From: Candidatus Zixiibacteriota bacterium
GTDB taxonomy: Bacteria > Zixibacteria > MSB-5A5 > WJJR01
Reading direction: 5' to 3'
Assembly: GCA_020058315.1 (NCBI GenBank)
Contig: JAGVEK010000484.1
Coordinates: 1-34,113 of the forward strand
Length of the DNA: 34,113 nt
How positions within the stretch are numbered: position 1 is the first letter of the stretch; each line of letters opens with the position of its first letter. Below are positions 3,175 to 28,418 of this stretch, piece by piece. The notes beneath the pieces were generated by a model. It was not told the origin of the DNA. It did not search any database and was given only the letters and a program-made list of their open reading frames with translations. The position numbers and the translations under genes were made by a program.

Positions 3175-3333
3175 CAATAATCGAACATCTCTCGTTCGTG
3201 TTTGGCGATATTCGCTTACGCCGCGGTCGGCGCGCCGACGTTGGAACTGGAGGTACAGTACATAAGTAGACCTGCGCTGATTCGGGACAAAGGTTGATTC
3301 CACTCGATTGGCCGCCATGAAACGATGTGAGGT

Positions 3334-3365: not shown

Positions 3366-3506
3366 TCTGAGCGGTCGTCGGAGGACCTGAAGATGACGCA
3401 ACAAGAGATTGAGGAATTAGCGAGGACCGTCGCGAAGCTGATCCGCAACAGCGCCGAGGTGCGGCAGACAATCTGAGGCTGCGCGTGCCAGTGCCCAAAT
3501 CTAACC
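3334..3506 (+). repeat. Direct repeat copy 1 (palindrome + RBS + small ORF), paralogous to 6250-6421
   Basis: Shares TGGCGGTTCGC...GAACCGCCA, GGAGGA, ATGACGCAACAAGA and CGAAGCTGATCCGCAACAGCGCCGAGGTGCGGCAG with the 6250 copy. Confidence 0.92.
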
Positions 3507-4246: not shown

Positions 4247-5143
4247 GTGAACGTACCCGTCGTCTATCACGCGGATTACTACGCGGACATCGGCGCCCAC
4301 GTTTTTCCCACCAGGAAGTTTTCGCTCGTCCTCGAAGCGATTCAGAGGAACGTTGGCGAAATAATGGGATGTCTTCGCCAGCCCTCGCCCGCAACGCGCG
4401 AGCAACTCCTGCGCATACACGCGCCCGAGTACCTAGCGGATCTGGACGGTTGTCGCTGGACGCCGCGAACCTCGTTCTCGGAATTGCCGCTGACCAAGGA
4501 GATCGTCGACGCCTATTACCTGATGGCTGGTGGAACGTGCCTGGCGGCAAGCCTTGCCTGCCAACATGGCGGTGCGATGAACCTGGGCGGTGGGTTCCAC
4601 CACGCCTTCGCAGACCGGGCAGAGGGGTTCTGTTACGTCAACGACGTTGCCATCGCGGTGCGTGAGATTCAGGCGCAGAGGCTCGTCGAGCGCGTGGCCG
4701 TCATCGACACCGACCTGCACCAGGGCAACGGCACAGCGCGGATCTTTCGGGGCGACCCGCAAGTCTTTACCTTTTCGATTCACCAGGAGGATCTTTATCC
4801 CCTCAAGGAGCAGAGCAGCTTGGACATCGGGCTGGAAGACGGAACGGAGGACGACGAGTACCTCACGAAGCTACGCCAAGGGCTGGATGTTGTCTTTGGG
4901 CAGTTCAAGCCGCAATTCGTGATGTACGTCGGCGGCGTGGATCCCTACAAGGACGATCGGCTCGGCTCATTACAACTCACCAAGGCAGGAATCAAGCAGC
5001 GCGACACGATGGTCTTCCGGAGATGTCGCGATCACGGCGTTCCCGTTGTGGCCGTGCTTGCGGGCGGCTACGCGGCCGATGTCGGGGACACGGTTGAAAT
5101 GCACGCCAACACCTACCTGGCGTTGCGAGGAACTCTCGGCTGA
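4247..5143 (+). CDS. Histone deacetylase family (Zn-dependent amidohydrolase, class IV/HDAC11-like)
   Basis: GGGFHHA, GFCYVND, IDTDLHQGNGT, SIHQ, GVDPYKDDRLG and AGGY motifs. GTG start at 4247 after GGAAGG. Confidence 0.93.
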   Translation: MNVPVVYHADYYADIGAHVFPTRKFSLVLEAIQRNVGEIMGCLRQPSPATREQLLRIHAPEYLADLDGCRWTPRTSFSELPLTKEIVDAYYLMAGGTCLAASLACQHGGAMNLGGGFHHAFADRAEGFCYVNDVAIAVREIQAQRLVERVAVIDTDLHQGNGTARIFRGDPQVFTFSIHQEDLYPLKEQSSLDIGLEDGTEDDEYLTKLRQGLDVVFGQFKPQFVMYVGGVDPYKDDRLGSLQLTKAGIKQRDTMVFRRCRDHGVPVVAVLAGGYAADVGDTVEMHANTYLALRGTLG

Positions 5144-5287
5144 GCCCGCGGCGATTGGATGTTGCCCGACCAAATCCGTTGCGATCAGCGGGCAAATTCG
5201 TTTTCGATACTCAGTACATACCGTTTCTCGCCCGCATCGGCGTCCCATTGCCTGGCAGACCCGCAGTGCAGGCAGTCAGAGCACAGG

Positions 5288-6178
5288 TCAGTTTGGTGTC
5301 AGGGCGAACGCCCAAGCGACCGCAAGAATCGTCAAAGCGGCGCCTCCGAATATGAGCTGTGCTCGCAGTTGAGACCATGCGCGGTCGGCTCTTTCGCCGA
5401 GAGCGCCAACTAGAGCGCCACACAGGAAGCCAAACACGTGGGCGCCGACATCGGTGCGCCCGCCGCCAGTACCTAGGAGGCTGAGCAGGAGGGCGCCCCC
5501 GACGATCGGCGCCCATTTTTCCATTCGTGAGGTGCGCAGCCATCTGTTTTGTCGCCAAGCATGCCCCGCAAGCAACCCCAAGGCAGCGAAGACGGCAGTC
5601 GAAGCGCCGATAGAAGCGTGGCCGGCGGGGTGCAGCCAAGCATTGAGAAGATTGCCCAAGGCGCCTCCGATGAGGATGCCAAACCAGGCGCGGCCCGAAC
5701 CAAACGAACGGCCAGCGAACAGCCCGACGAGACCGCCGATGATGACGTTCCCAATCAAGTGCACAAGGTCGGCGTGCAAGGTCAGAGCGGTTACCGTCAG
5801 CCACCACTGTCCCTGTCGGATGAGGCCTGCCTGTGCCGTGCCTGCTTCAAGCCAATCCACACCAAATGAATGCTGCTGCTGCCACACGGCTACGATCGAT
5901 AGCACCGTGGCATAGCACAACACGCCGGCCCACCCGTTGGCCGGCCTTGGAACCGTAAAACGAGCCGTCGGCCAATCACGATTCTCTGATGCGTAGGCAT
6001 CGAGTTCCGCGCGGCTCCGATCCGCATCCGAAGCAGCAACCAAGATGATGAGCTCACCTGCTTCTGGACGAACCTCGTGCGCGATCCCAGCCGCCCCAAG
6101 CACAAGGGCATGCTCGCGGCAATCCGTTTGATTCGGCGAACGGTAGACGATTCCCCACTCAAAACGCGAGTCGGCCAT
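5288..6178 (-). CDS. Rhomboid family intramembrane serine protease with small soluble N-terminal domain
   Basis: HADLVHLIGN, GAS catalytic motif (IGASTAVF), AHVFGF catalytic His, multiple TM segments. Confidence 0.92.
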   Translation of the reverse strand: MADSRFEWGIVYRSPNQTDCREHALVLGAAGIAHEVRPEAGELIILVAASDADRSRAELDAYASENRDWPTARFTVPRPANGWAGVLCYATVLSIVAVWQQQHSFGVDWLEAGTAQAGLIRQGQWWLTVTALTLHADLVHLIGNVIIGGLVGLFAGRSFGSGRAWFGILIGGALGNLLNAWLHPAGHASIGASTAVFAALGLLAGHAWRQNRWLRTSRMEKWAPIVGGALLLSLLGTGGGRTDVGAHVFGFLCGALVGALGERADRAWSQLRAQLIFGGAALTILAVAWAFALTPN

Positions 6179-6249: not shown

Positions 6250-6282
6250 TGGCGGTTCGCCTTGTTTTTGAGCGAACCGCCA
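6250..6282 (+). promoter_or_regulatory. Conserved palindrome/hairpin copy 2 (TGGCGGTTCGC-N11-GCGAACCGCCA)
   Basis: Perfect 11-bp inverted repeat, T-rich spacer, about 25 nt upstream of ATG 6308. Confidence 0.72.
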
Positions 6283-6421
6283 CAAGTGGTCGCTGGAGGA
6301 ACTGAATATGACGCAACAAGAAAGCGAAGAGTTCGCAAAGCTCATCACGAAGCTGATCCGCAACAGCGCCGAGGTGCGGCAGGCGATCTGGGACTGCGCG
6401 TGCCAATGCCCGAACCTAACC
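6250..6421 (+). repeat. Direct repeat copy 2 (intact)
   Basis: Aligns by eye with 3334-3506. Confidence 0.92.
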
Positions 6422-7727: not shown

Positions 7728-7994
7728 ATGGCAGACCGTGAACACACTATCACGTTGACTTTGTGCGAAGGCGATTTCGAGATGTCGATGGGGCGCAAGC
7801 CGCGTGGCGATGAGGAGTTCGAAGAGTGGGCCTATCTGTGCGAGAAGGGAATGCTCAACGGGCACATTGATTGGGATGTTTTGTATCAATGTGCGAAAGA
7901 GGCGATGCCCGTGGGTGCGGACCAATCGGTTCTTGGCTCCTCAGCCGACCAGCGAAGGAAACCAAAAACAAATCCTTCGGAGGCAGCACCATGA
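7728..7994 (+). CDS. Small acidic hypothetical protein
   Basis: GAGGTGATC RBS. The stop overlaps the next ATG (ATGA). Confidence 0.75.
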   Translation: MADREHTITLTLCEGDFEMSMGRKPRGDEEFEEWAYLCEKGMLNGHIDWDVLYQCAKEAMPVGADQSVLGSSADQRRKPKTNPSEAAP

Positions 7995-8851
7995 AGAAAA
8001 ACCAAGCTCAGAGGGTCATCGACGAAGCGCTCGAGCAACTCGCAACAGCGCTTGCGAACGGGCAGAGTGAAGCGCTGAAAACTTACCTCTCCGCGATGGC
8101 GCGGTTTTCGGCCTACAGCATCGGGAACCTCCTGTTGATTTTGGCGCAACGGCCTGAGGCGACGAGAATTGCGGGCTACCGCACTTGGCAAGGACTCGGC
8201 CGCAATGTCAAGAAGGGCGAGAAAGGGATACTCATCACTGCGCCGATTGTTTTCAGCAAGAAACACGGCGACAGGCACAGCCGTGCGCCACCAATTCATG
8301 AAGAAGACGACACGATACTGTACTTCAAGGCGGTGCACGTTTTCGACATTTTACAAACTGATGGCAGGCCGCTTCCAAAACCCGCCTGCGTCGGCGGCAA
8401 CCCCGACGGCCAAACGGAAAAACTCAAGGCGTTCGTCGCGTCGAAGGGGATTGCACTCGATTACTCGTCAAGCCTCGGGACAGCCGACGGCCAGTCTCAG
8501 GGCGGAAAAATCACGCTCCGCGAAGGACTTGCGCCGGCAGAGGAATTCTCCGTTCTTGTCCATGAGCTCGCCCACAGTCTCCTTCACTCTCGTAGCGTTG
8601 CAACGACAAAGACCGTTCGCGAGACCGAAGCCGAAGCCGTGGCGTTTGTGGTCTGCCAGGCAATCGGCCTCGAAACAGGAACCTCGTCATCGGATTACAT
8701 TCGGCTTTATCGTGGCGACAAAGAAACGCTCGCGCAGTCGCTGGCACGGATTCAGAGAACGGTGGCGGAAATTCTGGAGGGAATCCAGGCAGATGCAGAA
8801 CAACAATCCGAAGATCTCGGATTAGTGCAGGAATCCCTTGCAAAACAATGA
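7991..8851 (+). CDS. ArdC-like protein: N-terminal ssDNA-binding domain plus zincin (HExxH) metallopeptidase-like domain
   Basis: FSAYSIGNLLLILAQRPEATRIAGYRTWQGLGRNVKKGEKGILITAP, FKAVHVFDILQTDG, HELAH, ETEAEAVAFVVC and SSDYI motifs typical of ArdC/LtrC-like mobile-element proteins. Confidence 0.88.
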   Translation: MKKNQAQRVIDEALEQLATALANGQSEALKTYLSAMARFSAYSIGNLLLILAQRPEATRIAGYRTWQGLGRNVKKGEKGILITAPIVFSKKHGDRHSRAPPIHEEDDTILYFKAVHVFDILQTDGRPLPKPACVGGNPDGQTEKLKAFVASKGIALDYSSSLGTADGQSQGGKITLREGLAPAEEFSVLVHELAHSLLHSRSVATTKTVRETEAEAVAFVVCQAIGLETGTSSSDYIRLYRGDKETLAQSLARIQRTVAEILEGIQADAEQQSEDLGLVQESLAKQ

Positions 8852-17249: not shown

Positions 17250-17858
17250 ATGTACCCAATCCAATCGTCCAACGGCCCTATCTCCACGGGCAGCTATGTC
17301 CCGTACTTCTATCAGGGCGGCGTCTTCGAGCGCTACGGGCTGCCTGCCGTGCTTCCCGGCCGCACCGGGACGCAAGAAAAAGCGATCCCGTACCGATTCT
17401 CGTCTGATCTCTCGTTAGTAAGAACGCTGGACCACGACCAAACCGTCGAGCAGATCATCGCTCACGGTTACTTCGCGCCGCCACCGGGCGATCCGATCAC
17501 GGCCATCCTATCCGACAAGAAAACCACCTCCTGGCTCGGCCTCGACGACATCATCTCGCAGGTCCGACACCGCTACGAGGTGCACCGCCAGAACATGTAC
17601 GAACTGGAACTGGCCAAATCGGCCGCGACCAACTCGCTCTACGCCCACTGGGCCTACCACGGTCTGCCCGACGCGAAACAATTCTACTCCCGCCACAAGC
17701 GTATCCAGGAGCTCTACCAGGAGCAGCGAGATGAACGGGTGAACCTCTGGCGCGATGTATCCCGACTGCGATTGGCTCTCCCCGAGACGGCCCAGGCATA
17801 CCTCTCTTCGCACCGCAAACTCACCGCCCTCGAAGGCGAACCGGGTGATGCTCCATGA
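17250..17858 (+). CDS. Hypothetical coiled-coil protein, translationally coupled to the ATPase
   Basis: GAGGTGG RBS; ATGA overlap with 17855. Confidence 0.82.
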   Translation: MYPIQSSNGPISTGSYVPYFYQGGVFERYGLPAVLPGRTGTQEKAIPYRFSSDLSLVRTLDHDQTVEQIIAHGYFAPPPGDPITAILSDKKTTSWLGLDDIISQVRHRYEVHRQNMYELELAKSAATNSLYAHWAYHGLPDAKQFYSRHKRIQELYQEQRDERVNLWRDVSRLRLALPETAQAYLSSHRKLTALEGEPGDAP

Positions 17859-19969
17859 TGACCCGCATGCAGGAACTGTGTCGAAAGCTCAAGCCGGTTC
17901 TCGGTTCAAAAGTGGACGGATTGTGGCGGGCGTACGTCGCCGATTCCGACGCCGACGGCAAAGCGGACATCGAACAAACATTGGAACTTCTGGCCGCCAA
18001 GCACCTCGGAATCGACTATCAGCCGGATCGCTCGCCATTCCCGCCGCCGGCCAGGACGTTCGCGGCCTTGGGCGACATTACAACCGGCATGGTCTCGTAC
18101 GGGACTCGCGAGTTGTATCCCTTCGCCCTTCAAAGTGGGCGTCTCAAGGAACACGTCCTGATCGCCGGAAGGAGCGGCTCTGGAAAGACCAATCTCTCCT
18201 TTGTTCTCATGCAAGGCATCATGAACCGTGGCGTCAAGATTCTGGCTTTGGACTGGAAGCGCGCCTACCGGGACCTGCTTTCGCTGCGATCGGACTTGCG
18301 TGTCTACACCATCGGGCGGGAAGTGGCGCCATTCAGATTCAACCCCTTCATTCCTCCGCCCGGCTGCGAAGTCCAAGTTTGGACCAAGCTCATCGTGGAT
18401 GTGATTGCGTCCGCGTACCTCGGCGGCGAGGGAGTCATCAGCCTGCTCATCGCGGGACTCGATCGGCTCTATCCGGAAGCCCGCGACAAGAGACGCTGGC
18501 CGACGGTCATCGATCTTCTGACCTGGCTGCGGACCGTCAAACTCCGAGGCCGTGCGGCGATGTGGCAAGCGTCGGCCGAGAGAATTCTTCTCGCCATGAC
18601 CTACGGCGAGTTCGGTGCCGTCCTCAACACCCAGGACAACAGCCATCTGCAACACCTTCTCGATCACAATGTCATCCTGGAGATGGATGGTCTGTCGAGT
18701 TCCTCCGATCGGGTGATGTTCTCGGAGGCCATCACGCTCTACCTCTATCGCTACCGGCTGTCCCTTGGGCCGCGAGAACAGCTGACCAACGTCATTGTCC
18801 TCGAGGAAGCCCACAACCTACTCCTCGCTAAGCAGACGGGGACGAAGGAATCTGGCCTTGAGACCTCCATTCGAATGATCCGTCAGTACGGGCTCGGCTA
18901 CGTCTTCGTCGATCAATCGGCGTCCCTGTTGAGCCGGGTGGCTTTCGCCAACTCCTACGTGACCTTCGCGCTCAGTCAGAAACTCCGTGCGGACATCAAG
19001 ACCATGTCCGGGGCGATGAATTTGTCCGAAGAACAGGAGGAGGCGTTGAGCACTCTCCCGATAGGATCGGCAGTCGTGCGCCTGGCCGACGAGCATCCTG
19101 AACCATTCCTGATCCGGATCCCGCGCTGCTCGATCCGGGAAGGAAGCGTCTCCGATTCTGCGATTCGAAGTCACATGGCGGCTTATTCCGCTGAGTCCGC
19201 GGTGAATAGTCCGCCGCGCTTTGAACTACCGGCGGTTCCACCGGTTCCGGCCCCAGATAAAAACAACATTGAAATCAACCTAACGACAATTATTCCCCAC
19301 CCACCATCCCCCGAAAGATCACCCGAATGCTCGGATTCATCCGACTCGACCATCCGCGATACGATTCCCGATCCACCCCATTCTAAACTCTCTCGAGAGA
19401 CAATTCGCTTCCTTACTGATATAGCCGCCCGGCCGCTATCGACTACTGTCTCTCGTTATCAACGATTGCATCTGTCCCGTCGAAAAGGTAACGCCATCCG
19501 TCATGATCTACTCGCCGCCGGCATCATCGAAGCCGTCCCCCTCGCCACCCGCACCGGGCAGGTCATGCTCTTTCAGTTGACCGACTTCGGTCGTCAGATC
19601 TGTAACGACATCGGTGTGGATCCCGGTCCTCCGCCCCGCGCCAGCCTCGAACATCAATACTGGGCCCATCGCGTGGCCGAGATGTACGAGAAGCAGGGTT
19701 ATGAAGTCGCGCTTGAGCATGCCGTGGCCGGCAACGGAATCGTCGACGTCGTCGCCGAGCGCGCTAGTGAGCGCCTGGCCATTGAGATCGAGACAGGCAA
19801 GTCAGACATCCAAGCGAACATCGAGAAGCTGCGAGGCATGGGTTTCGATCGAGTCCTCCTCGTGGCCACCTCGCCATCCGCGATTAGCGCCTGCCAGCGG
19901 GCGCTGGATTCCGTCCCGCGGGAAGCCCGGCAGGCAGTTGAACTCTTGACATGGCTGGATGTGCCATAG
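17855..19969 (+). CDS. HerA/VirB4-like (DUF87) ATPase fused to Pro-rich linker, winged helix and PD-(D/E)xK nuclease-like domain
   Basis: HVLIAGRSGSGKTN (Walker A), LDWKRAY, IVLEEAHNL (Walker B), RQYGLGYVFVDQS. wHTH ...LLAAGIIE...FQLTDFG. EH...VDVVAE...LAIEIETGK. Confidence 0.88.
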   Translation: MMTRMQELCRKLKPVLGSKVDGLWRAYVADSDADGKADIEQTLELLAAKHLGIDYQPDRSPFPPPARTFAALGDITTGMVSYGTRELYPFALQSGRLKEHVLIAGRSGSGKTNLSFVLMQGIMNRGVKILALDWKRAYRDLLSLRSDLRVYTIGREVAPFRFNPFIPPPGCEVQVWTKLIVDVIASAYLGGEGVISLLIAGLDRLYPEARDKRRWPTVIDLLTWLRTVKLRGRAAMWQASAERILLAMTYGEFGAVLNTQDNSHLQHLLDHNVILEMDGLSSSSDRVMFSEAITLYLYRYRLSLGPREQLTNVIVLEEAHNLLLAKQTGTKESGLETSIRMIRQYGLGYVFVDQSASLLSRVAFANSYVTFALSQKLRADIKTMSGAMNLSEEQEEALSTLPIGSAVVRLADEHPEPFLIRIPRCSIREGSVSDSAIRSHMAAYSAESAVNSPPRFELPAVPPVPAPDKNNIEINLTTIIPHPPSPERSPECSDSSDSTIRDTIPDPPHSKLSRETIRFLTDIAARPLSTTVSRYQRLHLSRRKGNAIRHDLLAAGIIEAVPLATRTGQVMLFQLTDFGRQICNDIGVDPGPPPRASLEHQYWAHRVAEMYEKQGYEVALEHAVAGNGIVDVVAERASERLAIEIETGKSDIQANIEKLRGMGFDRVLLVATSPSAISACQRALDSVPREARQAVELLTWLDVP

Positions 19970-22311: not shown

Positions 22312-22739
22312 GGGTGTTCGAGGTCTGGCCGGCGGTAGCCGTGAATCTGCTGGTGCCGATATTCGGCCTGGGCGCGCTGATACTCGGCATGAACGCGCCG
22401 CATCAGGGTTTCGTCCCAGCGGGTGGTACTCAAGTCCTGGTCGCGGGCTACAAGGGCCGCGATTCCGTTGAAACGATAGACGCGCTGACGCTCGGCGTAG
22501 TCGACGCCGCTGTTCGGGTCAGCGTATTCGACCACGAGGCTGTCGTAGGTCGGCAGCGTGAAGGTTGGATGCCAGATGTCATGGTAGCCCTGGTCATAGA
22601 TCAAACGCGGCTGGCGGTAGAAGAACGGAGTGTCGTATCGGTCCATCATCCGGCCAATGCGGGCCTCGACATCGGTCTGATACGGCGGTTCCAGTTTGCC
22701 AAGTTTGGGGTCCGGCGGTTCGTAGGTCTTGGAATTCAT
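22308..22739 (-). CDS. Degenerate PD-(D/E)xK nuclease-fold protein
   Basis: EARIGRMMDRY..PFFY...WHPTFTLP...LVVEY...Y...RVYRFNGI follows the 'YPDFxLP...IEYxG' pattern but has T in place of the catalytic D. GAGGTGA RBS. Confidence 0.65.
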   Translation of the reverse strand: MNSKTYEPPDPKLGKLEPPYQTDVEARIGRMMDRYDTPFFYRQPRLIYDQGYHDIWHPTFTLPTYDSLVVEYADPNSGVDYAERQRVYRFNGIAALVARDQDLSTTRWDETLMRRVHAEYQRAQAEYRHQQIHGYRRPDLEHP

Positions 22740-23809
22740 GGTTGGTTCACCTCGGGTGTTTGTTGGGTAACGTGTTGAGCGACGGCGAGGAGTTTTTTCT
22801 CGGTGCGATCGATGAGCTTGAAAAGGCGCGTGTTGTGAGCTTGGAGTTTCTCGGCGCCCTTGAGCAGGTCGGGCACTCTCCGGTACTCATGTCGCTTGAG
22901 GGCCTCCGCGGCCTCCGCGGTCACATGGTGGATGCGGCGCTCGGCCTCGGCGCAGGCGCGGTCTAGACGTTCGAGGCGTAGATCCAGCTTGAGCTCCTTG
23001 AATCGGGTACTGAGTTCTTCGCCGAGTTTCCGCTTCCCTTCCGCAGGCAGCTTCGAGAGGACGTCGCGGATCTCCTCGATCCGGGCCACCTGTCCCTCGC
23101 GCATGTGGTAGGCCCTCTCGCGAAGGGCCGCGAGGCGCTCGGTCAGATAGCCCTCCGCGGGAAGAATGCGCCGGAGCTGGAGCATGAGGTCGTTTTCCAG
23201 CTCCGGGCGGTCATCAAGGAGATCTGCCTCCCGCCGCGCCCGGCGCAACTGGTTGACGAGCGCACCGGCCAGGTGGCGGTCACGGTAGAGTCGAACGGGG
23301 TCGTTTCGCACGGACGGAACCGCGGCTGGGGTTTGTGGGCGCCAGCGGCGGTTATCTTGGCGGTGGTTGCCCAGGGCGAGAAGTCCTACCAATAGTGCGA
23401 CCGTTGTGATCGTTTGGAGCACCTGCTCGTTGATTGGCCATGGGATGCCGAGGATCCAGCCTATCAGGATGCTCACGCCGAAGGTGAACGACAGACCCGC
23501 AATGGTCCCGCCGATGGCGCGGATCGCCCGGTACATGACGGCGGCAAGAAGTAGAAGGGCGAAGGCCACGGCGATGGGACCGAGGCTTCTGATGGAATAG
23601 CCGTTCTCTGCCTCCCACCACACGAGGCCTGTTGAAAGCGCCACGCCGATCGCCAGAGAGGCTACGGCGGCGGAGCGCTTGTTGAACTTGTCGCTCAACG
23701 CAGCGAAACAGAGGGCGGTGAAGAAGGCCACGGCCAGTACGAAGTCAGGGAAGAATTCATGAAGAAGCGTCCCTCTCGCCAACTCTGCCGCCTCGTCCGC
23801 GCGCGCCAT
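22736..23809 (-). CDS. Multi-pass membrane protein (about 5 TM) with long cytoplasmic coiled coil
   Basis: Hydrophobic N-half, R/E/L-rich heptad C-half. Likely start MARADEAA at 23809 with no SD. Confidence 0.85.
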   Translation of the reverse strand: MARADEAAELARGTLLHEFFPDFVLAVAFFTALCFAALSDKFNKRSAAVASLAIGVALSTGLVWWEAENGYSIRSLGPIAVAFALLLLAAVMYRAIRAIGGTIAGLSFTFGVSILIGWILGIPWPINEQVLQTITTVALLVGLLALGNHRQDNRRWRPQTPAAVPSVRNDPVRLYRDRHLAGALVNQLRRARREADLLDDRPELENDLMLQLRRILPAEGYLTERLAALRERAYHMREGQVARIEEIRDVLSKLPAEGKRKLGEELSTRFKELKLDLRLERLDRACAEAERRIHHVTAEAAEALKRHEYRRVPDLLKGAEKLQAHNTRLFKLIDRTEKKLLAVAQHVTQQTPEVNQP

Positions 23810-23831
23810 GAAGGGAAGTGGGGCTTGGTTG

Positions 23832-23847
23832 TATTTATATCTTACTG
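23832..23847 (-). promoter_or_regulatory. BRE/TATA-like box for the membrane-protein operon (leaderless geometry)
   Basis: CAGTAAGA-TATAAATA then 22 C-rich, SD-free nt then ATG 23809. Confidence 0.6.
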
Positions 23848-23932
23848 TTCTTTGGATCTCGCAGCAGAGCGCGACCGCCATTCCCAGGACTGGACCATCT
23901 TCTCGTTCGTGGTGTCACCCCTCCCAAGGGGT

Positions 23933-23948
23933 GCGATAGCTTTATGTA
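23933..23948 (+). promoter_or_regulatory. BRE/TATA-like box for cdc6
   Basis: GCGATAGC-TTTATGTA; 23 nt later GAGTTGAT (SD-like) begins at 23972. Confidence 0.55.
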
Positions 23949-23977
23949 TTAGTGCGCTTTATACGCCACCAGAGTTG

Positions 23978-25078
23978 ATGAGCACCGTGGATTTCGAATC
24001 CTATTTCAAACACCAGCGCGAACGGATCGAGGAAGAGGCCAAACTAATCAAGGACTTCTCGGTCTTCAGCTTCCACTACGTTCCTGATGAACCGGTGCTT
24101 CGGCCCGAGGCCACCCTGCTGATCGATGAGCTCGCCAACTTCAACCTGTCCGGCATACCCACGCACCTGGCAATCGTTGGTAGCCGAGGCTCGGGTAAGA
24201 CCCTCACGGTCAAGTACCTGGAGCGCGTCGTGCAGCGGGAGTCGGACCTGGAGATCCTCTACGCCAACTGCCGCCATCACGACACGAGCTTCAAGATCTT
24301 CGCCCATCTTCTGGGCATCCACGCCCGTGGGGCTAGTATGAGCGAGGTGTTCGAGCGCTTTTGCGCCCGTTGCCGCAGAAAGACGGTGGTGGTCCTGGAC
24401 GAAGTCGACCTCATGAGTCCCAAGGACCGACGCCGTGAGATTCTGTACCTTCTCAGCCGGGCAGCACAGCCCTTCATGGTCATGATGCTCTCCAACAGCC
24501 CGCAGGTGCTCAAGGAGCTGGATGCCGCCACGCGGAGCAGCCTCCAGCCCGTTCCGGTCCACTTCAAGAACTACAATGCGGATCAGATCCGCGACATTCT
24601 CCGCGACCGCGCGCAGCGCGGGCTGCATCGTTGGGAAGAAGCCGACCTCTCGGAGATTGCCGCCTTGACTACGAAGTTCAGCAATGCCGACGCCCGCTTG
24701 GCGATCAAGACCCTGCAGTACCATGTGACCGGCCGGGCCAAGGACCTTCGCGCCTGCTTCGAACGCGCGCGGCGGGACCTCGTCGTGGACCTGGTCTGCG
24801 ACCTCTCGGACAGCACCCTGGCCATCCTCTGGGCTGCCGCCACCAACGACTCGGACTTTGCCCGAAGCATCTACGAGCGGTATTGTGCCCACTGCCGGCA
24901 GCGCCATGAAAAGCCGTTCAGCTACGTCCACTTTCATTCGAACCTGAGCTACCTGCAGAGCGCCGGCCTAGTTGCGTTGGTCTCGACCAAGCAAGGACGC
25001 ACCTACGCCAACCGGGTACTGTTGACCTTCGACCGGAACATGGCCCGTGAAATCGCCGGGCTGCGCTTCGAAGCCTGA
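23978..25078 (+). CDS. cdc6: Orc1/Cdc6-family replication initiator (AAA+ ATPase + C-terminal winged helix)
   Basis: FSFHYVPDEPVLR, IVGSRGSGKT (Walker A), YANCR, VVVLDEVD (Walker B), LYLLSR, LDAATRSSL, FKNYNADQIRDILRDRA, DARLAI (sensor II), wHTH YERYC..C...PFSYVHFHSNLSYLQSAGLV...GR. Start is ATG 23978 or GTG 23987. Confidence 0.88.
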   Translation: MSTVDFESYFKHQRERIEEEAKLIKDFSVFSFHYVPDEPVLRPEATLLIDELANFNLSGIPTHLAIVGSRGSGKTLTVKYLERVVQRESDLEILYANCRHHDTSFKIFAHLLGIHARGASMSEVFERFCARCRRKTVVVLDEVDLMSPKDRRREILYLLSRAAQPFMVMMLSNSPQVLKELDAATRSSLQPVPVHFKNYNADQIRDILRDRAQRGLHRWEEADLSEIAALTTKFSNADARLAIKTLQYHVTGRAKDLRACFERARRDLVVDLVCDLSDSTLAILWAAATNDSDFARSIYERYCAHCRQRHEKPFSYVHFHSNLSYLQSAGLVALVSTKQGRTYANRVLLTFDRNMAREIAGLRFEA

Positions 25079-25158
25079 CACCGGGCACGGATGGCTCGAC
25101 TTTTCCAGGCTGATTCTCGCCTTGTCTTGCGGAGCAGTGCCCTAATCTGGAAATGCTA

Positions 25159-25448
25159 ACACTGTGCGGAGTGAATACGCGGCCGTCTCCCGATGTGGTG
25201 GCATGCTCGTTCTTCCAATCGCGGATTGGGTGATCTTCCCGCATCATCACCGCGCGCAGTTAACACGTGGCAGCCATTTGTTCTTGGCGGGTGTCCATCA
25301 CTCCGGTGCCCGCCTGCTCCCATCCTGATTCTCGAACACGCTGTGCGTGTTAATGCGTGGCCGCATCCCAGGGCCGTGGTACATTCCTTCCTCAGATCCC
25401 TGGCTTCGCCATCAACCCGGCCTGTCACACTGTGCGCAGTTAACACGT
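25159..25448 (+). repeat. Four ~22-bp direct repeats at 88/90/90-bp spacing (iteron/ORB-like)
   Basis: ACACTGTGCGGAGTGAATACGC (25159), TCACCGCGCGCAGTTAACACGT (25247), ACGCTGTGCG-TGTTAATGCGT (25338), ACACTGTGCGCAGTTAACACGT (25427). Confidence 0.85.
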
Positions 25449-25530
25449 GGGCACCTACCCATGTGTGTGGTGTCCTGCGTCCTTCCCGTCTTTTCTTCCT
25501 GATTCTTCACTCCGTCCGAAGACTGCTTCC

Positions 25531-25573
25531 GACATACCTATATATGACATACCTATATATATTGCTACAATAT
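25531..25573. other. AT-rich tract with a 15-bp tandem duplication (DUE candidate)
   Basis: GACATACCTATATAT x2 (25531-25560) then ATTGCTACAATAT; among the most AT-rich stretches in a GC-rich window. Confidence 0.7.
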
Positions 25574-25615
25574 GGAAAGGAATAGGAAGGAAGGACCCCG
25601 CGGCCGGGGGCGTTG

Positions 25616-25637
25616 GCGTGTTAACTCCGCACAGTTT
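25616..25637 (-). repeat. Inverted fifth copy of the 22-bp repeat
   Basis: Reverse complement reads AAACTGTGCGGAGTTAACACGC. Confidence 0.85.
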
Positions 25638-26265
25638 GCTTTGACCTTCCAAGCCCAACTGGTCGCCGTTTGCCAGGCGCAGGGCGCCTTCGGAGTGCGA
25701 ATCTGCCGCGCACGCGGGAACGCCAGAATGCCGTAATCTCATCTACAGCCAGGGCTGATGCAGGGATCAGCCCTGTTCCGTATCGAGGGTCGTAGCGCTC
25801 GGCGTACAGGGCAGCGAGGCGATACCCGGTGCGAACCGACTCCCAGGGTCGCAGCACGCACTCCATCGCGTACTCCGCCAGCAGACCTTCCTTATAGTGG
25901 ATGATGCGGACATCGGCCCAGCGATGATGCTCAACCTCGCTTTGTGAATCCCGGAGGTCTTCGTACGCGGCCCGCAACGCCTCGCGACATACCGACCCCG
26001 GCCTGCGAAGATGCGATCGGATGACCCTCACCGCGCGATCGATCAGCGGGCGAAACTTCTTCTTGGCCTTGGGTCGGGCCAATTGGGTCAAGTGCAGCCC
26101 GAATGCAACCGTATCCGCCGGATCCGAGCAAAACTCCTTGAGCAGAGTGAGCCGCGTGATCTGGAAATGCTGGCCGTTTCGCAGCTGGGCGGCGATTTCG
26201 ACCAAGCGATTGATCTTCACCGCCGCTTTGTCTGGATCAATCACGTTCAATGGTGCTCCCATCAT
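25621..26265 (-). CDS. Hypothetical protein
   Basis: Protein-like core FQITRLTLLKEFCSD...YAERYDPRYGTGLIP. Start uncertain. The stop lies inside the inverted origin repeat. Confidence 0.75.
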   Translation of the reverse strand: MMGAPLNVIDPDKAAVKINRLVEIAAQLRNGQHFQITRLTLLKEFCSDPADTVAFGLHLTQLARPKAKKKFRPLIDRAVRVIRSHLRRPGSVCREALRAAYEDLRDSQSEVEHHRWADVRIIHYKEGLLAEYAMECVLRPWESVRTGYRLAALYAERYDPRYGTGLIPASALAVDEITAFWRSRVRGRFALRRRPAPGKRRPVGLGRSKQTVRS

Positions 26266-26332
26266 ACCACCGACACCGTGGCCTCAATCGATCCGCGGCT
26301 TGCTGCCGCAATGCGAGTACCGCGCGGGGACA

Positions 26333-26347
26333 GCACAGTTTTATATA
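26333..26347 (+). promoter_or_regulatory. BRE/TATA-like box for the Zn-ribbon operon
   Basis: GCACAGT-TTTATATA; 23 nt later SD GAGGTGATC begins at 26371. Confidence 0.6.
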
Positions 26348-26383
26348 CCAGGGTCCCTCCCATGTCCCGCGAGGTGATCAATC

Positions 26384-26710
26384 ATGGGAAGGCGATACAA
26401 GTGCGTTTGGTGCAGTTCCGGCGAGACGACCGGCAAAGGGGTTCGGCGCACAAAGACGATGGGGAATCGGCGAATTTGCCGCTGTAAGGCCTGCGGCCGA
26501 AAGTTCACGCCGAAATACCAGCCTGAAGTCTCGGTGACTTCGGGCCCTGATCAAACACGATCGTCGGCCATCGATCCGCAGAAGCTTGCGAAGCCTGCGC
26601 AACTCTGCAACTCAGCCCCAAAACAAGATCAGGCCAGCACTCCCATCGGCTATAAACCCGAGCAAGGAGACGCCGAACACGGCCTTTCGGAGAATGGCCC
26701 CAGCGCTTGA
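26384..26710 (+). CDS. Zn-ribbon protein (InsA-like CxxC...CxxC) with disordered tail
   Basis: YKCVWCSSGETTGKGVRRTKTMGNRRICRCKACGRKFTP; GAGGTGATC RBS. Confidence 0.78.
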   Translation: MGRRYKCVWCSSGETTGKGVRRTKTMGNRRICRCKACGRKFTPKYQPEVSVTSGPDQTRSSAIDPQKLAKPAQLCNSAPKQDQASTPIGYKPEQGDAEHGLSENGPSA

Positions 26711-27500
26711 CCGCTCCGGGCTCCTCACCCGCACCTTCCAGATGAGCGAGGCGGTCGAGCGGTTTGTCGGCGCCGCACGGGCGTTCTTCTACGAGGTCGC
26801 GCTGTCGGGTCGGCAATGTCCCGTCTGCGGTGGTCGCCTAGCGATGAGCGGTGAAAGTCGCTGTCGTTGCGAGACCTGCGGGCAGGAGTCGGACCCGACA
26901 TGTGCGTTCCAGCGGTGCCCGGCGTGCGGAGGCAGCCCACGGCTCCGCGTCCGGCGATATGAGTGCGAAATCTGCGGCATGGACATGCCGTCGCGTTTCG
27001 TCTTCGACGGATTGGTGTTCGATGTCGAGTACTTTCGGCAGAAGATGGAGGAGCATCGCCAGAGGACCGCGGGGCGTATGGAGCGTGTCCGTGAGATGCT
27101 TGCGGCGAGCCGATCGCCGGCAATCGCGGCAGGCCCGTTGGACCTGGCCAATCATCCCGGCTTGCTTGATGCACTGGACGCACTGGTAGACGGCTCTCCC
27201 GTCGCCCTCCAAATCGAGCCGCGCTCGAGATTCGATCTCAAGGCCTACCAGGCGCATGTACAGGCTAATCTTGGGACACTCGGGCGCGACTTCGATGAGA
27301 TCCCCGCCCTGCGATCTGATGACCGGTTTGACCGCGTGTGGCGGTTTATCGCGGTCATATTCCTCGCCCACGAGGGTCGCGTGAGGGTCGTTCAGGATGG
27401 CGAGGAGATCATGGTGATGCAACGTGAAACTGACCGAGAAGGACAAGACATTTCTGGAGAACTTGAAGAGGCTGATGGAGTCGAAGGACTTGTGGGTTGA
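26694..27500 (+). CDS. Double Zn-ribbon protein with ScpA/kleisin-like C-terminal winged helix
   Basis: CPVC, CETC, CPAC and CEIC pairs. C-terminal DRVWRFIAVIFLAHEGRVRVVQDGEEIMV resembles the ScpA 'FLALLxLxxxGxIxxxQ...I' motif. Start 26694 or 26742. Confidence 0.75.
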   Translation: MAPALDRSGLLTRTFQMSEAVERFVGAARAFFYEVALSGRQCPVCGGRLAMSGESRCRCETCGQESDPTCAFQRCPACGGSPRLRVRRYECEICGMDMPSRFVFDGLVFDVEYFRQKMEEHRQRTAGRMERVREMLAASRSPAIAAGPLDLANHPGLLDALDALVDGSPVALQIEPRSRFDLKAYQAHVQANLGTLGRDFDEIPALRSDDRFDRVWRFIAVIFLAHEGRVRVVQDGEEIMVMQRETDREGQDISGELEEADGVEGLVG

Positions 27501-27903
27501 ACTCAAGCCCGGCCAACCCAGCCACATGGTCCTTCGCGGTACCTACGGAGAGAAAGTTTATCGGGCCTTTCGCATGACTCGGCAGGGCGTGCGCTGGCGC
27601 TTCTGGCGTATCTATAATGATATCTACATTTCTGCGTTCGAGGCCATTCTCTTCGTGGAAACCACATTCGGCACTCAGCTCCGCGAACATGCGATCCGAA
27701 TCAGCAAGGAGCGGTATGCGCTGCGGCAGGAGGCGTTGGGAAGCGAGTTTGAAAGCGCGAGCGTGGTGCGGGATGGAAGTGACGATTCTCCGAAGGCCCC
27801 AGTCTCGGAGAGTGATCATACCAAGCACCCGGATCACGAACCGCATGACTCCAACGCGGCCGAAGGTGCTCAGCCTCAGGAGCCGCGAGGTGACGGCCGA
27901 TGA
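27424..27903 (+). CDS. Hypothetical protein, possible HTH
   Basis: GGTGA RBS before GTG; FRMTRQGVRWRF resembles an HTH recognition helix; overlaps both neighbours. Confidence 0.75.
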   Translation: MKLTEKDKTFLENLKRLMESKDLWVELKPGQPSHMVLRGTYGEKVYRAFRMTRQGVRWRFWRIYNDIYISAFEAILFVETTFGTQLREHAIRISKERYALRQEALGSEFESASVVRDGSDDSPKAPVSESDHTKHPDHEPHDSNAAEGAQPQEPRGDGR

Positions 27904-28319
27904 GCGAACCGAGCAAGATCGATTTCCGGCATCGGCGCATTCGGGAGATCGAAGATATCACGGACATCGTGGCGATGATCTTCCCAGGCAACACGAATCA
28001 GCAAAACGCGGCGGCACGGATACTTCTCACATTAAAGGCCGCCGCGGAAACGGTCCCATCGTTGCGAGTTCTTGAGGAACAACATGGCATCTCGCGCCGA
28101 ACGCTCGAACGCACGCGGGCCAAGCTGGCTCATGTTGGCCTGATCGAAAACATCGGGCCGCTGAGCAAGCGGGCAAATGGTCACCCAGGCTGGCGGCTCT
28201 CGGGGCGGATGAGCGGCGCGATGCGCCTCCTTGCCGAGAAGATTGATACATGGAAAACCGACACGAGGCCGGAGCGCCAAGAGAAGGATGAGAGGCTGGT
28301 AGGGATGCAGTTATCGTGA
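27900..28319 (+). CDS. Winged-helix DNA-binding protein
   Basis: LRVLEEQHGISRRTLERTRAKLAHVGLIE...GWRLS; GAGGTGA RBS; ATGA overlap. Confidence 0.8.
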   Translation: MSEPSKIDFRHRRIREIEDITDIVAMIFPGNTNQQNAAARILLTLKAAAETVPSLRVLEEQHGISRRTLERTRAKLAHVGLIENIGPLSKRANGHPGWRLSGRMSGAMRLLAEKIDTWKTDTRPERQEKDERLVGMQLS

Positions 28320-28418
28320 ACGACCCTATTGCGAGGGAAGCACGCCGGACGCCGCGCAGCGCAGGCCCGTGACCATAGGTGACTTGTGCCGTAACTGAGG
28401 CCTTCTTACGCTGGGCGT

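Follow-up and report, generated by a model that had tools for sequence, protein, structure and literature searches.

The stretch of DNA analyzed here (the window) comprises contig C143 in full, 34,113 bp, from a metagenome-assembled genome (MAG) labelled Candidatus Zixiibacteriota; it encodes, next to each other, an AAA+ protein of the Orc1/Cdc6 family and a cassette of repeated sequence boxes around an AT-rich spacer (Table 1). Orc1/Cdc6 initiators are a hallmark of archaeal and eukaryotic replication, in which they work with MCM. We consider it probable that the Orc1 gene (hereafter orc) and the cassette together constitute a replication module and that the mobile elements carrying it form a family residing mainly in Planctomycetota. 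The protein has the fold and the motifs of an initiator, a cassette linked in cis to the gene occurs family-wide, both the protein and the boxes have homologs on plasmid pPO1 of the archaeon Picrophilus oshimae, and MCM was not found in the five genomes searched for it. By analogy with archaeal origins and with pPO1, the boxes would be bound by the initiator, the spacer would be melted and the origin would fire.

The relationship of the initiator to Orc1/Cdc6 is supported by profile, sequence and structure comparisons. Its best NCBIfam match is TIGR02928 (orc1/cdc6; E 3.1e-37, residues 24-341 aligned with model positions 2-357 of 366), followed by four ORC1-type models, and Pfam returned generic AAA domains along with a weak Cdc6_C match (E 0.002; 18.5 bits, below the cut-off of 25.1); no Rep or DnaA family among the Pfam and NCBIfam profiles matched the protein. 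The top sequence matches in PDB are archaeal Orc1/Cdc6 proteins, namely, 2v1u (E 1.1e-18) and 2qby_A (E 1.8e-17), then 2qby_B and 1fnn. The AlphaFold2 model, for which an alignment of 17 family members served as the input, has three predicted domains (mean predicted local distance difference test score 84.9; predicted template modeling (TM) score 0.79). All PDB matches listed by Foldseek for this model (ranks 1-50, with additional chains of the same entries not listed) belong to Orc1, Cdc6 or ORC proteins, and the best three are the DNA-bound 2qby_A, 2v1u_A and 2qby_B, aligned over 357-372 columns with TM scores of 0.63-0.67 and 23-25% identity. Walker A (GSGKT, residues 71-75; G71, G73, K74 and T75), Walker B (D141/E142), N173 and D238/R240 (the DAR motif, sensor-2) are invariant among the 17 aligned sequences, and R186, which we take as the arginine finger, is kept in at least 90% of that alignment. 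These ATPase motifs line up with those of 2v1u and 2qby, and the naming of the residues as Walker, sensor and arginine finger is our own reading of the alignments to these two proteins. In the predicted structure, helices 104-112 and 121-131, inserted between strands 92-97 and 136-141, would form the initiator-specific motif (ISM), a stretch that aligns with the same region of 2v1u in the sequence search, whereas the modeled C-terminal winged helix consists of helices 295-308 and 316-328 and a hairpin at 332-349. Given the Foldseek matches, the ATPase motifs, the ISM insert and the winged helix, we conclude that the open reading frame (ORF) encodes a true but divergent Orc1/Cdc6. An earlier note on this DNA, written from the sequence alone, had described the ORF as Orc1/Cdc6-like with Walker A and B, sensors and a C-terminal winged helix-turn-helix; TIGR02928, PDB, the motifs and the AlphaFold2 model agree with this description, and TIGR02928, PDB and Foldseek place the protein with Orc1/Cdc6 and not with other AAA+ families.

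Two other assignments of the protein were rejected. For a TniB/TnsC-like AAA_22 or STAND ATPase, the AAA_22 match is limited to the P-loop core (E 1.5e-8), and there is no transposase among the conserved neighbors; for a defense system, PADLOC yielded nothing better than E 8e-4 and no credible match. A 297-amino acid frame lies antisense to orc (24044-24937, minus strand), and similar frames are found in 71 loci; most likely, this frame is the mere shadow of a GC-rich conserved gene and not itself a gene.

The cassette in the window starts 82-84 nt past the orc stop codon, where the first box begins, and consists of direct boxes with a period of 88-90 nt followed by one inverted box. At up to four mismatches, an 18-mer from the box occurs in four places (25160, 25248, 25428 and 25616) and nowhere else in the 34,113 bp. 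The earlier note had counted four direct repeats, and three of these are clear copies; the fourth, at about 25338-25360, which gap-free scans overlooked, is degenerate and has a 1-nt deletion, and the periodicity holds with this box included. The inverted copy and the AT-rich tract described in that note are real: the spacer has an A+T fraction of 0.49 overall and 0.78 in its richest 40-nt stretch, compared with 0.41 for the whole window. Within the spacer, there is an imperfect inverted repeat with arms at 25479-25495 and 25580-25596. A search of 24900-26700 against Rfam found nothing, the best match having E 0.71. The tandem 15-mer GACATACCTATATAT in the AT-rich core is present in two copies in the window and in one copy in contigs of two public sequencing runs (X1 and X2), that is, it shows copy-number polymorphism.

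Table 1. Features of the window. Locus counts are the numbers of loci with a homolog beside orc, in set 1 and then in set 2 (see text); scores are those of the position weight matrix (PWM) of the box.
Feature	Position	Strand	Basis or remarks
ArdC-like anti-restriction protein	7871..8851	+	ArdcN 7.1e-14; PHROG anti-restriction 6.2e-14; near orc in 4 set-2 loci
Two-gene unit: 202-aa protein and 704-aa HerA/FtsK-superfamily ATPase	17250..19969	+	DUF87, TraG P-loop, HerA_C
Small neighbor, 143 aa	22308..22739	-	25 + 27 loci; homolog with weak Phage_endo_I match, E 0.0077
Divergent membrane/coiled-coil protein	22736..23881	-	32 + 44 loci; no Pfam, NCBIfam or PADLOC match
Orc1/Cdc6-family AAA+ initiator gene (366 aa)	23978..25078	+	TIGR02928, PDB, AlphaFold2, Foldseek, alignment motifs
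Direct box 1 (CACTGTGCGGAGTGAATACGCGG)	25160..25182	+	repeat scan; PWM score 20.6
Direct box 2	25248..25270	+	repeat scan; PWM score 18.9
Degenerate direct box 3 (1-nt deletion, ~18/23 matches)	about 25338..25360	+	read by eye
Direct box 4, best direct copy, left arm of convergent pair	25428..25450	+	PWM score 25.6
Spacer, candidate unwinding region	25451..25615		pyrimidine-rich left, AT-rich core, purine-rich right
Tandem 15-mer GACATACCTATATAT, two copies, in AT-rich core	25531..25560	+	repeat scan
Central conserved near-palindrome, here CTACAATATGGAAA, family consensus TTTCtATATtGAAA	25565..25578		motif scan across loci
Inverted box, right arm of convergent pair	25616..25638	-	PWM score 27.1
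Small zinc-ribbon protein, first gene of downstream operon	26384..26710	+	7 + 19 loci; homolog Zn_ribbon_NrdR 3.6e-6
Zinc-ribbon protein (start likely near 26742)	26586..27500	+	24 + 31 loci
Conserved small protein	27424..27903	+	21 + 22 loci
Putative winged-helix protein	27900..28319	+	14 + 13 loci; weak HVO_A0261_N, MarR, Rrf2

The cassette was compared across two sets of related loci, 80 from species-representative genomes (set 1) and 80 from metagenome contigs (set 2). The position matrix of the box was made from box-like matches in set 1, and set 2 was not used in building it; the sets are partly independent, as some MAG contigs share metagenomes (for example, contigs with the lengths 18,748 and 215,077 are in both). 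Set 1 contains 99 box matches in the 32.8 kb that follow the orc stop codons against 40 in the other 686 kb, and set 2 contains 159 in 31.2 kb against 65 in 607 kb. This enrichment, about 50-fold directly 3' of orc in both sets, places the boxes beyond chance. Typically, one or two direct boxes come 10-120 nt past the stop codon and are followed by an AT-rich spacer with a central palindrome and then by an inverted box, with a median distance of 160 nt between the starts of the two convergent boxes. An adjacent convergent pair was detected in 105 of the 161 loci overall, in agreement with the suggestion of the earlier note that repeats and an AT tract follow the gene in homologous loci. The pair is present in 28 of the 30 set-1 loci with at least 53% identity and at least 350 bp of downstream sequence and in 10 of the 37 more distant ones; in set 2, it was found in 57 of 63 loci, 55 of which also have the central motif. 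An additional box, at most 150 nt upstream of the start codon, was found in 20 of 73 loci; at the threshold used, the window has none there.

A search for strict inverted repeats (16-mers with up to two mismatches) near orc in the loci without a pair gave nothing useful, and a scan of the whole loci with the matrix then identified displaced pairs. Thus, among the 81 set-1 loci, 40 have a pair directly after orc and 9 have a displaced pair only, one of which (L072) extends into the gene and is doubtful. In several loci of a distant clade (clade 2), the pair is retained at a distance of 1.7-4 kb from orc; the spacing of these displaced pairs is constant, about 199 nt, and they carry conserved inner motifs of their own. 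In clade 2, the pair is located behind a HerA-like gene, and its inner part is inverted in L080 and L083 relative to L065, L076 and L079. Being found kilobases away from orc, with an inner part whose orientation differs between loci, the cassette behaves as a separate module.

The spacers themselves are conserved in composition and structure. The A+T fraction of the spacer exceeds that of its own locus in 37 of 41 cases (mean 0.60 vs 0.48). The central near-palindrome YTTCNATATNGAAA is located in the middle of 33 of the 41 set-1 spacers, with 33 matches in 6.8 kb inside spacers compared with 36 in 385 kb outside, and is present in 95 of the 105 adjacent cassettes. In these 95 cassettes, the purine fraction of the plus strand changes from 0.45 to the left of the central motif to 0.66 to its right.

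The initiator family includes at least 588 proteins by word-indexed search, and HMMER, run over 1.84 billion representatives at 50% identity, yielded 56 matches at E <=1e-30 and 584 at E <=1e-10. The best 120 relatives are 57-98% identical to the initiator, nearly all of them 343-420 amino acids long and, where named, assigned to Phycisphaerae or Planctomycetota MAGs; some relatives already carry the public annotation orc1/cdc6 or Cdc6/Cdc18. The spread is patchy: among the 151 genomes of the class to which the MAG is assigned, only 1, the MAG itself, has the gene, and in the phylum, 3 of 285 genomes have it. Several MAGs carry two or three copies of orc, and the carriers include a single-cell genome of Planctomycetota (L072) and contigs of 0.36-0.9 Mb. 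Homology of the window with its closest relative, contig L127 (91.5% over 9.3 kb), stops at 25639, the outer edge of the inverted box, and restarts 1.6 kb further on, at position 27204 of the window, after about 3.9 kb of unrelated L127 sequence; two Logan contigs end at the same base, 25639.

A phylogenetic tree of 97 sequences was built by a quick method under the LG+G4 model, with set-1 loci required to match at least 330 query residues and relatives' loci to have a frame of at least 330 amino acids; the archaeal sampling is thin, comprising 19 DPANN-like chromosomal and 6 plasmid sequences, with none of the Sulfolobus or Pyrococcus type of Orc1. In this tree, the 72 bacterial sequences form one clade (99 in the Shimodaira-Hasegawa-like approximate likelihood ratio test, SH-aLRT), to which Cdc6 of pPO1 is sister (SH-aLRT 100), apart from the 19 DPANN-like and the 5 other plasmid Orc1. 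The sampling and the long branches, including that of pPO1, make this sister relation likely rather than settled. Among the 72 bacterial rows, 54 are labelled Planctomycetota, one of them being the single-cell genome, and the branching order is discordant with the host classes: Phycisphaerae, Planctomycetia, Brocadiia and a few other phyla are intermixed. The patchy spread, the multiple copies, the discordance between the tree and the hosts, and the modular break of homology are compatible with a mobile element whose replication cassette is modular. The search of 2.9 million IMG/VR contigs turned up one weak 25% match over about 100 residues and no true relative, and 50,697 phage records likewise contained none; a viral assignment was rejected accordingly.

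Most of the carriers checked have the bacterial initiator. DnaA is encoded on another contig of the MAG from which the window derives (2.75 Mb in 571 contigs, 59% complete), and true DnaA is present in four of the five other carrier genomes. The earlier note had seen no MCM helicase in the window, and the search of genomes extends this: in this MAG and four other carriers (five genomes), the MCM OB domain was not detected, the same search having matched exactly the four archaeal controls, and the MCM ATPase model gave weak AAA cross-matches only.

In the mechanism we favor, the Orc1/Cdc6-type initiator, in the form of ATP-bound monomers, would bind through its winged helix and ISM to the asymmetric boxes, each about 19 bp long. 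Two boxes and, hence, two monomers would face each other across the spacer, about 160 bp apart as measured between box starts; the bound initiator would distort and melt the AT-rich, strand-asymmetric, near-palindromic center of the spacer, and the replicative helicase would then be loaded on the melted center in both directions. In the loci that have it, the extra box near the start codon could provide autoregulation. With DnaA present and MCM not found, the initiator of such a hybrid system would have to pass the melted origin to another helicase, which we infer to be either the host DnaB or a protein of the element such as the HerA/CedD-like ATPase. This full scheme, in which bacterial mobile elements start replication by an archaeal-type Orc1/Cdc6 at an ORB-style origin (ORB, origin recognition box) and hand over to DnaB or to the HerA/CedD-like ATPase, is put forward tentatively, with the balance tipping slightly against it as a whole. 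The reading of the earlier note, which had proposed an initiator-origin pair, is supported, with the firing of the origin proposed from the analogy drawn above.

Several observations weigh against a replication module. The initiator scores 128.3 bits against TIGR02928, under the curated cut-off of 181.3, and we therefore file it as a divergent subfamily and not as an ordinary member. No pair was found in the DNA covered for 32 of the 81 set-1 loci, 10 of which have less than 350 bp downstream. Conserved families of the neighborhood include no replicative helicase, primase or polymerase (Pfam, NCBIfam and PHROGs). None of the 29 whole contigs of set 1 has a terminal overlap, nor does any whole contig of set 2, and many copies of orc are on contigs of 0.36-0.9 Mb, so that an integrated origin would need silencing or regulation. 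On one such contig, of 721 kb (G286:C9), we saw no skew sign of the cassette as the origin; this is a single contig with a weak cumulative GC skew, its minimum located at about 250 kb, some 80 kb from orc at 332 kb. Finally, three features of the cassette could belong to a promoter. The consensus anchored on the central motif has a TATAAT-like tataaTA just to the left of this motif; a sigma-70-like site at 25544-25571 in the window matches at 10 of 12 positions and has a TG extension; and, in clade 1, the cassette is bordered by orc on one side and by a conserved operon of the same orientation on the other.

These last features, together with the start-codon boxes described above, are what one would expect if the Orc1-like protein were solely a transcription regulator, with the boxes acting as operators around a promoter for the zinc-ribbon operon, the start-codon box controlling orc, and nothing being replicated. 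Because the cassette is directly upstream of a conserved operon, an operator/promoter role fits as well, and a non-initiator Orc1 paralog of Sulfolobales provides a precedent, as far as the available parts of the two reports go (PMC6061795, PMC9738581). We nevertheless regard this explanation as unlikely. The promoter scan did no better than shuffled sequences, with one site found compared with a mean of 0.8; the box pairs are confined to one site, adjacent or displaced, with few matches elsewhere, unlike a regulon; and the clade-2 pair, with its inner part in differing orientations, is kilobases away from orc behind the HerA-like gene. Furthermore, the full set of ATPase motifs is invariant, and in pPO1, an autonomous plasmid, there is no candidate origin other than the homologous cassette.

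Somewhat less plausible still is that the cassette serves another DNA transaction, such as partition, transfer or packaging, or site-specific recombination, with the Orc1-like ATPase as a site-specific loader. Consistent with this, a CedD/TraC/HerA-like DNA translocase is among the conserved neighbors, the homology with L127 ends precisely where the inverted box does, on its outer side, no replication enzymes were found nearby, and the zinc-ribbon protein at 26586-27500, whose Atlas cluster is mostly from Planctomycetota, has a weak ScpA/kleisin-like lead (0.77-0.80, below the trust level). Against it, no integrase, relaxase, ParA/ParB, terminase or capsid family was detected in the window or among the conserved families (Pfam, NCBIfam and PHROGs), the viral and phage collections hold no true relative, and, to our knowledge, all characterized proteins of the Orc1 fold whose boxes form a pair around AT-rich DNA are initiators.

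The remaining explanation, an artefact, concerns the origin of the contigs. The composition of the window fits that of its MAG (GC 0.594 vs 0.587 +/- 0.011; tetranucleotide correlation 0.97), but its gene content does not: genomes of the same genus lack orc (0/3), the HerA-like gene (0/3) and the apiosidase-like gene (0/3) and show a 35-36% partial match to the contig's flanking deacetylase, whose nearest named relative, from a Planctomycetota MAG, is 88% identical. Given this gene content, foreign to the genus, and the similarity of the deacetylase to that of Planctomycetota, the contig is probably misbinned. As to the contig taxonomy that the earlier note wanted checked, the contig is very probably bacterial and has an independently assembled relative, but is probably foreign to the MAG to which it was assigned. 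One carrier MAG (G290, locus L076/L093) is labelled as an archaeon. It encodes a family member with 45% identity on an 11-kb contig in addition to its own ordinary Orc1, and its size, 2.0 Mb, compares with 0.4-1.0 Mb in 20 DPANN-like relatives; judging from a genome twice the size of its relatives and an ordinary Orc1 elsewhere in it, the carrier contig is probably a bacterial stray in a contaminated bin. Two flanking genes examined in five carrier genomes gave no decisive host assignment. That the contig is archaeal or chimeric, or that the repeats arose by chance, is therefore very improbable and largely refuted, notwithstanding the misfit with the MAG and the archaeal label of G290: the family is found on many bacterial contigs, including the large ones and the single-cell genome, four of five further carriers have true DnaA, the deacetylase points to Planctomycetota, the near-identical L127 was assembled independently, and the box enrichment is repeated in the second set of loci.

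Public sequencing runs were searched for the region as well. Parts of 23000-27500 are carried as contigs in 20 runs, with a best share of 0.32; the four runs compared contain short pieces of related strains, with no usable depth and no circular junction. One low-depth contig of X2 (90% likeness) joins position 28358 back to 23660 with 9 letters in between, which we do not count as evidence; if real, this junction would imply a 4.7-kb circle or tandem containing orc, the cassette and the downstream operon.

The genes around orc suggest a larger element. The 704-amino acid ATPase has CedD, a DNA-translocating ATPase, as its best NCBIfam match (E 1.6e-19), followed by TraC, and has homologs in 25 + 16 loci. 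As homologs of ArdC are found near orc in other loci, the element appears to reach at least to the ArdC-like gene at 7871-8851. No tRNA gene and no convincing flanking direct repeat mark its borders in the window. DnaA, the ArdC-like protein, the CedD/TraC-like ATPase and the preponderance of Planctomycetota in the tree bear out the bacterial, mobile-element-like context that the earlier note had assumed. In the distant clade, the operon has the order f11 (weak GHKL ATPase), JAB, ThiF/E1, f9, HTH (helix-turn-helix), orc, f24, HerA-like. In seven loci (L065, L072, L076, L078, L079, L080 and L069), orc is in an operon with JAB, ThiF/E1-like, weak GHKL-ATPase-like and small HTH genes; these genes beside orc are a ubiquitin-like conjugation set of the conflict-system kind.

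Some further features of the window were observed. The segment 25639-27203, directly outside the inverted box, is variable, and a 214-amino acid ORF at 25621-26265 (minus strand) has homologs in one set-1 locus and two set-2 loci. A 137-nt direct repeat with 82% identity (3370-3506 and 6285-6421) brackets the deacetylase and rhomboid genes, and a GC-rich palindrome, GGCGGTTCGCC...GGCGAACCGCC, is found at 6251 and 7073; a 19-nt motif at 3333 is related to it. Faint matches to families with haloarchaeal names (HVO_A0261_N, DUF7129 and DUF5798; E 0.01-0.04) were obtained for 26742-27500 and 27900-28319 of the window and for 4742-5818 and 8006-9034 of L025, and the best named relative of the ATPase is the crenarchaeal CedD. 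These matches hint at a possible archaeal descent of other parts besides the initiator, a signal too weak to support a claim.

An Orc1 with inverted boxes around an unwinding region is already known from archaea; what is new is a conserved, widespread Orc1-origin module in bacteria that have DnaA and in which MCM was not found. A search of the full-text literature, which leaves most subscription journals and supplements uncovered, returned no account of such a replicon, based on Orc1/Cdc6, from bacteria in general or from planctomycetes, and the available parts of Raymann et al. 2014 (PMC3914693) and of a 2026 preprint make no mention of bacterial Orc1. If the module fires, origin recognition and helicase loading would be recombinable across domains, and the elements would combine the initiation machineries of two domains in a natural hybrid; the kinship with plasmids of Thermoplasmatales would then point to a replicon that crossed the divide between archaea and bacteria. 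Such a compact two-part system would be suited for asking how Orc1 engages a helicase other than MCM. Planctomycetota have few genetic tools, and a native replicon is a candidate vector backbone. The family also calls for caution in pipelines that treat TIGR02928 as an archaeal marker; the available part of one preprint puts this model in the chromosomal-marker panel of a misassembly screen.

Four known systems invite comparison. Sulfolobales Orc1-2 belongs to the same protein family and acts at many promoters, whereas the boxes described here gather at one cassette beside or near orc. In the accessible portions of the reports, Orc1-2 is a non-initiator paralog that regulates the DNA-damage response (PMC6061795, PMC9738581), a precedent for a purely regulatory Orc1.

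Bacterial iteron plasmids combine an initiator encoded by the element, repeated sites by an AT-rich region, autoregulation at the initiator's own gene, and a host helicase. The window resembles them in having an iteron-like array, with its period of 88-90 nt, beside an AT-rich region, but the initiator is an AAA+ Orc1/Cdc6 here and a winged-helix Rep there.

At archaeal chromosomal origins (Sulfolobus oriC1 and Aeropyrum; 2qby and 2v1u), the protein has the same fold over its full length, the initiator gene adjoins the origin, and asymmetric inverted boxes surround AT-rich DNA. Archaeal Orc1 recruits MCM via the winged helix. The bacterial family differs in its low protein identity to these initiators (23-25%), in the presence of DnaA and in that MCM was not found; our comparison of boxes covers pPO1 only.

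The closest parallel is with pPO1. PLSDB contains no record at least 60% identical to the initiator; the 30 matches listed show 23-30% identity, all of them, and all organisms named, are archaeal, and the best is pPO1 (7.6 kb; E 2e-36), whose host is an archaeon with MCM. Its Cdc6 has 363 amino acids, compared with 366 here, the same layout, and 30% identity over 329 residues (E 4e-49); two convergent boxes surround an AT-rich stretch of about 215 bp, and a third box overlaps the ATG of the gene. One arm fits the bacterial matrix at 15 of 19 positions and is the sole match in the plasmid; a match of this strength occurs in 8 of 500 composition-matched random sequences. The origin of pPO1 is predicted, not mapped. 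According to the available text of its description, pPO1 is an autonomous plasmid present in 12-15 copies per genome that has no Rep gene and encodes a COG0433 FtsK/HerA-type ATPase, its authors proposed Cdc6 and the upstream region as initiator and origin, and they regard pTA1 of Thermoplasma acidophilum as similar (PMC3177234). The differences are equally clear: pPO1 is small, circular and autonomous, whereas we saw no circular form of the bacterial elements, and many of their copies reside on large contigs; its cassette is upstream of orc, that of the bacterial family downstream; and its HerA-like ATPase has no significant similarity to that of the window beyond the P-loop. Thus, pPO1 and the bacterial family share the replication module, but not the type of element that carries it.

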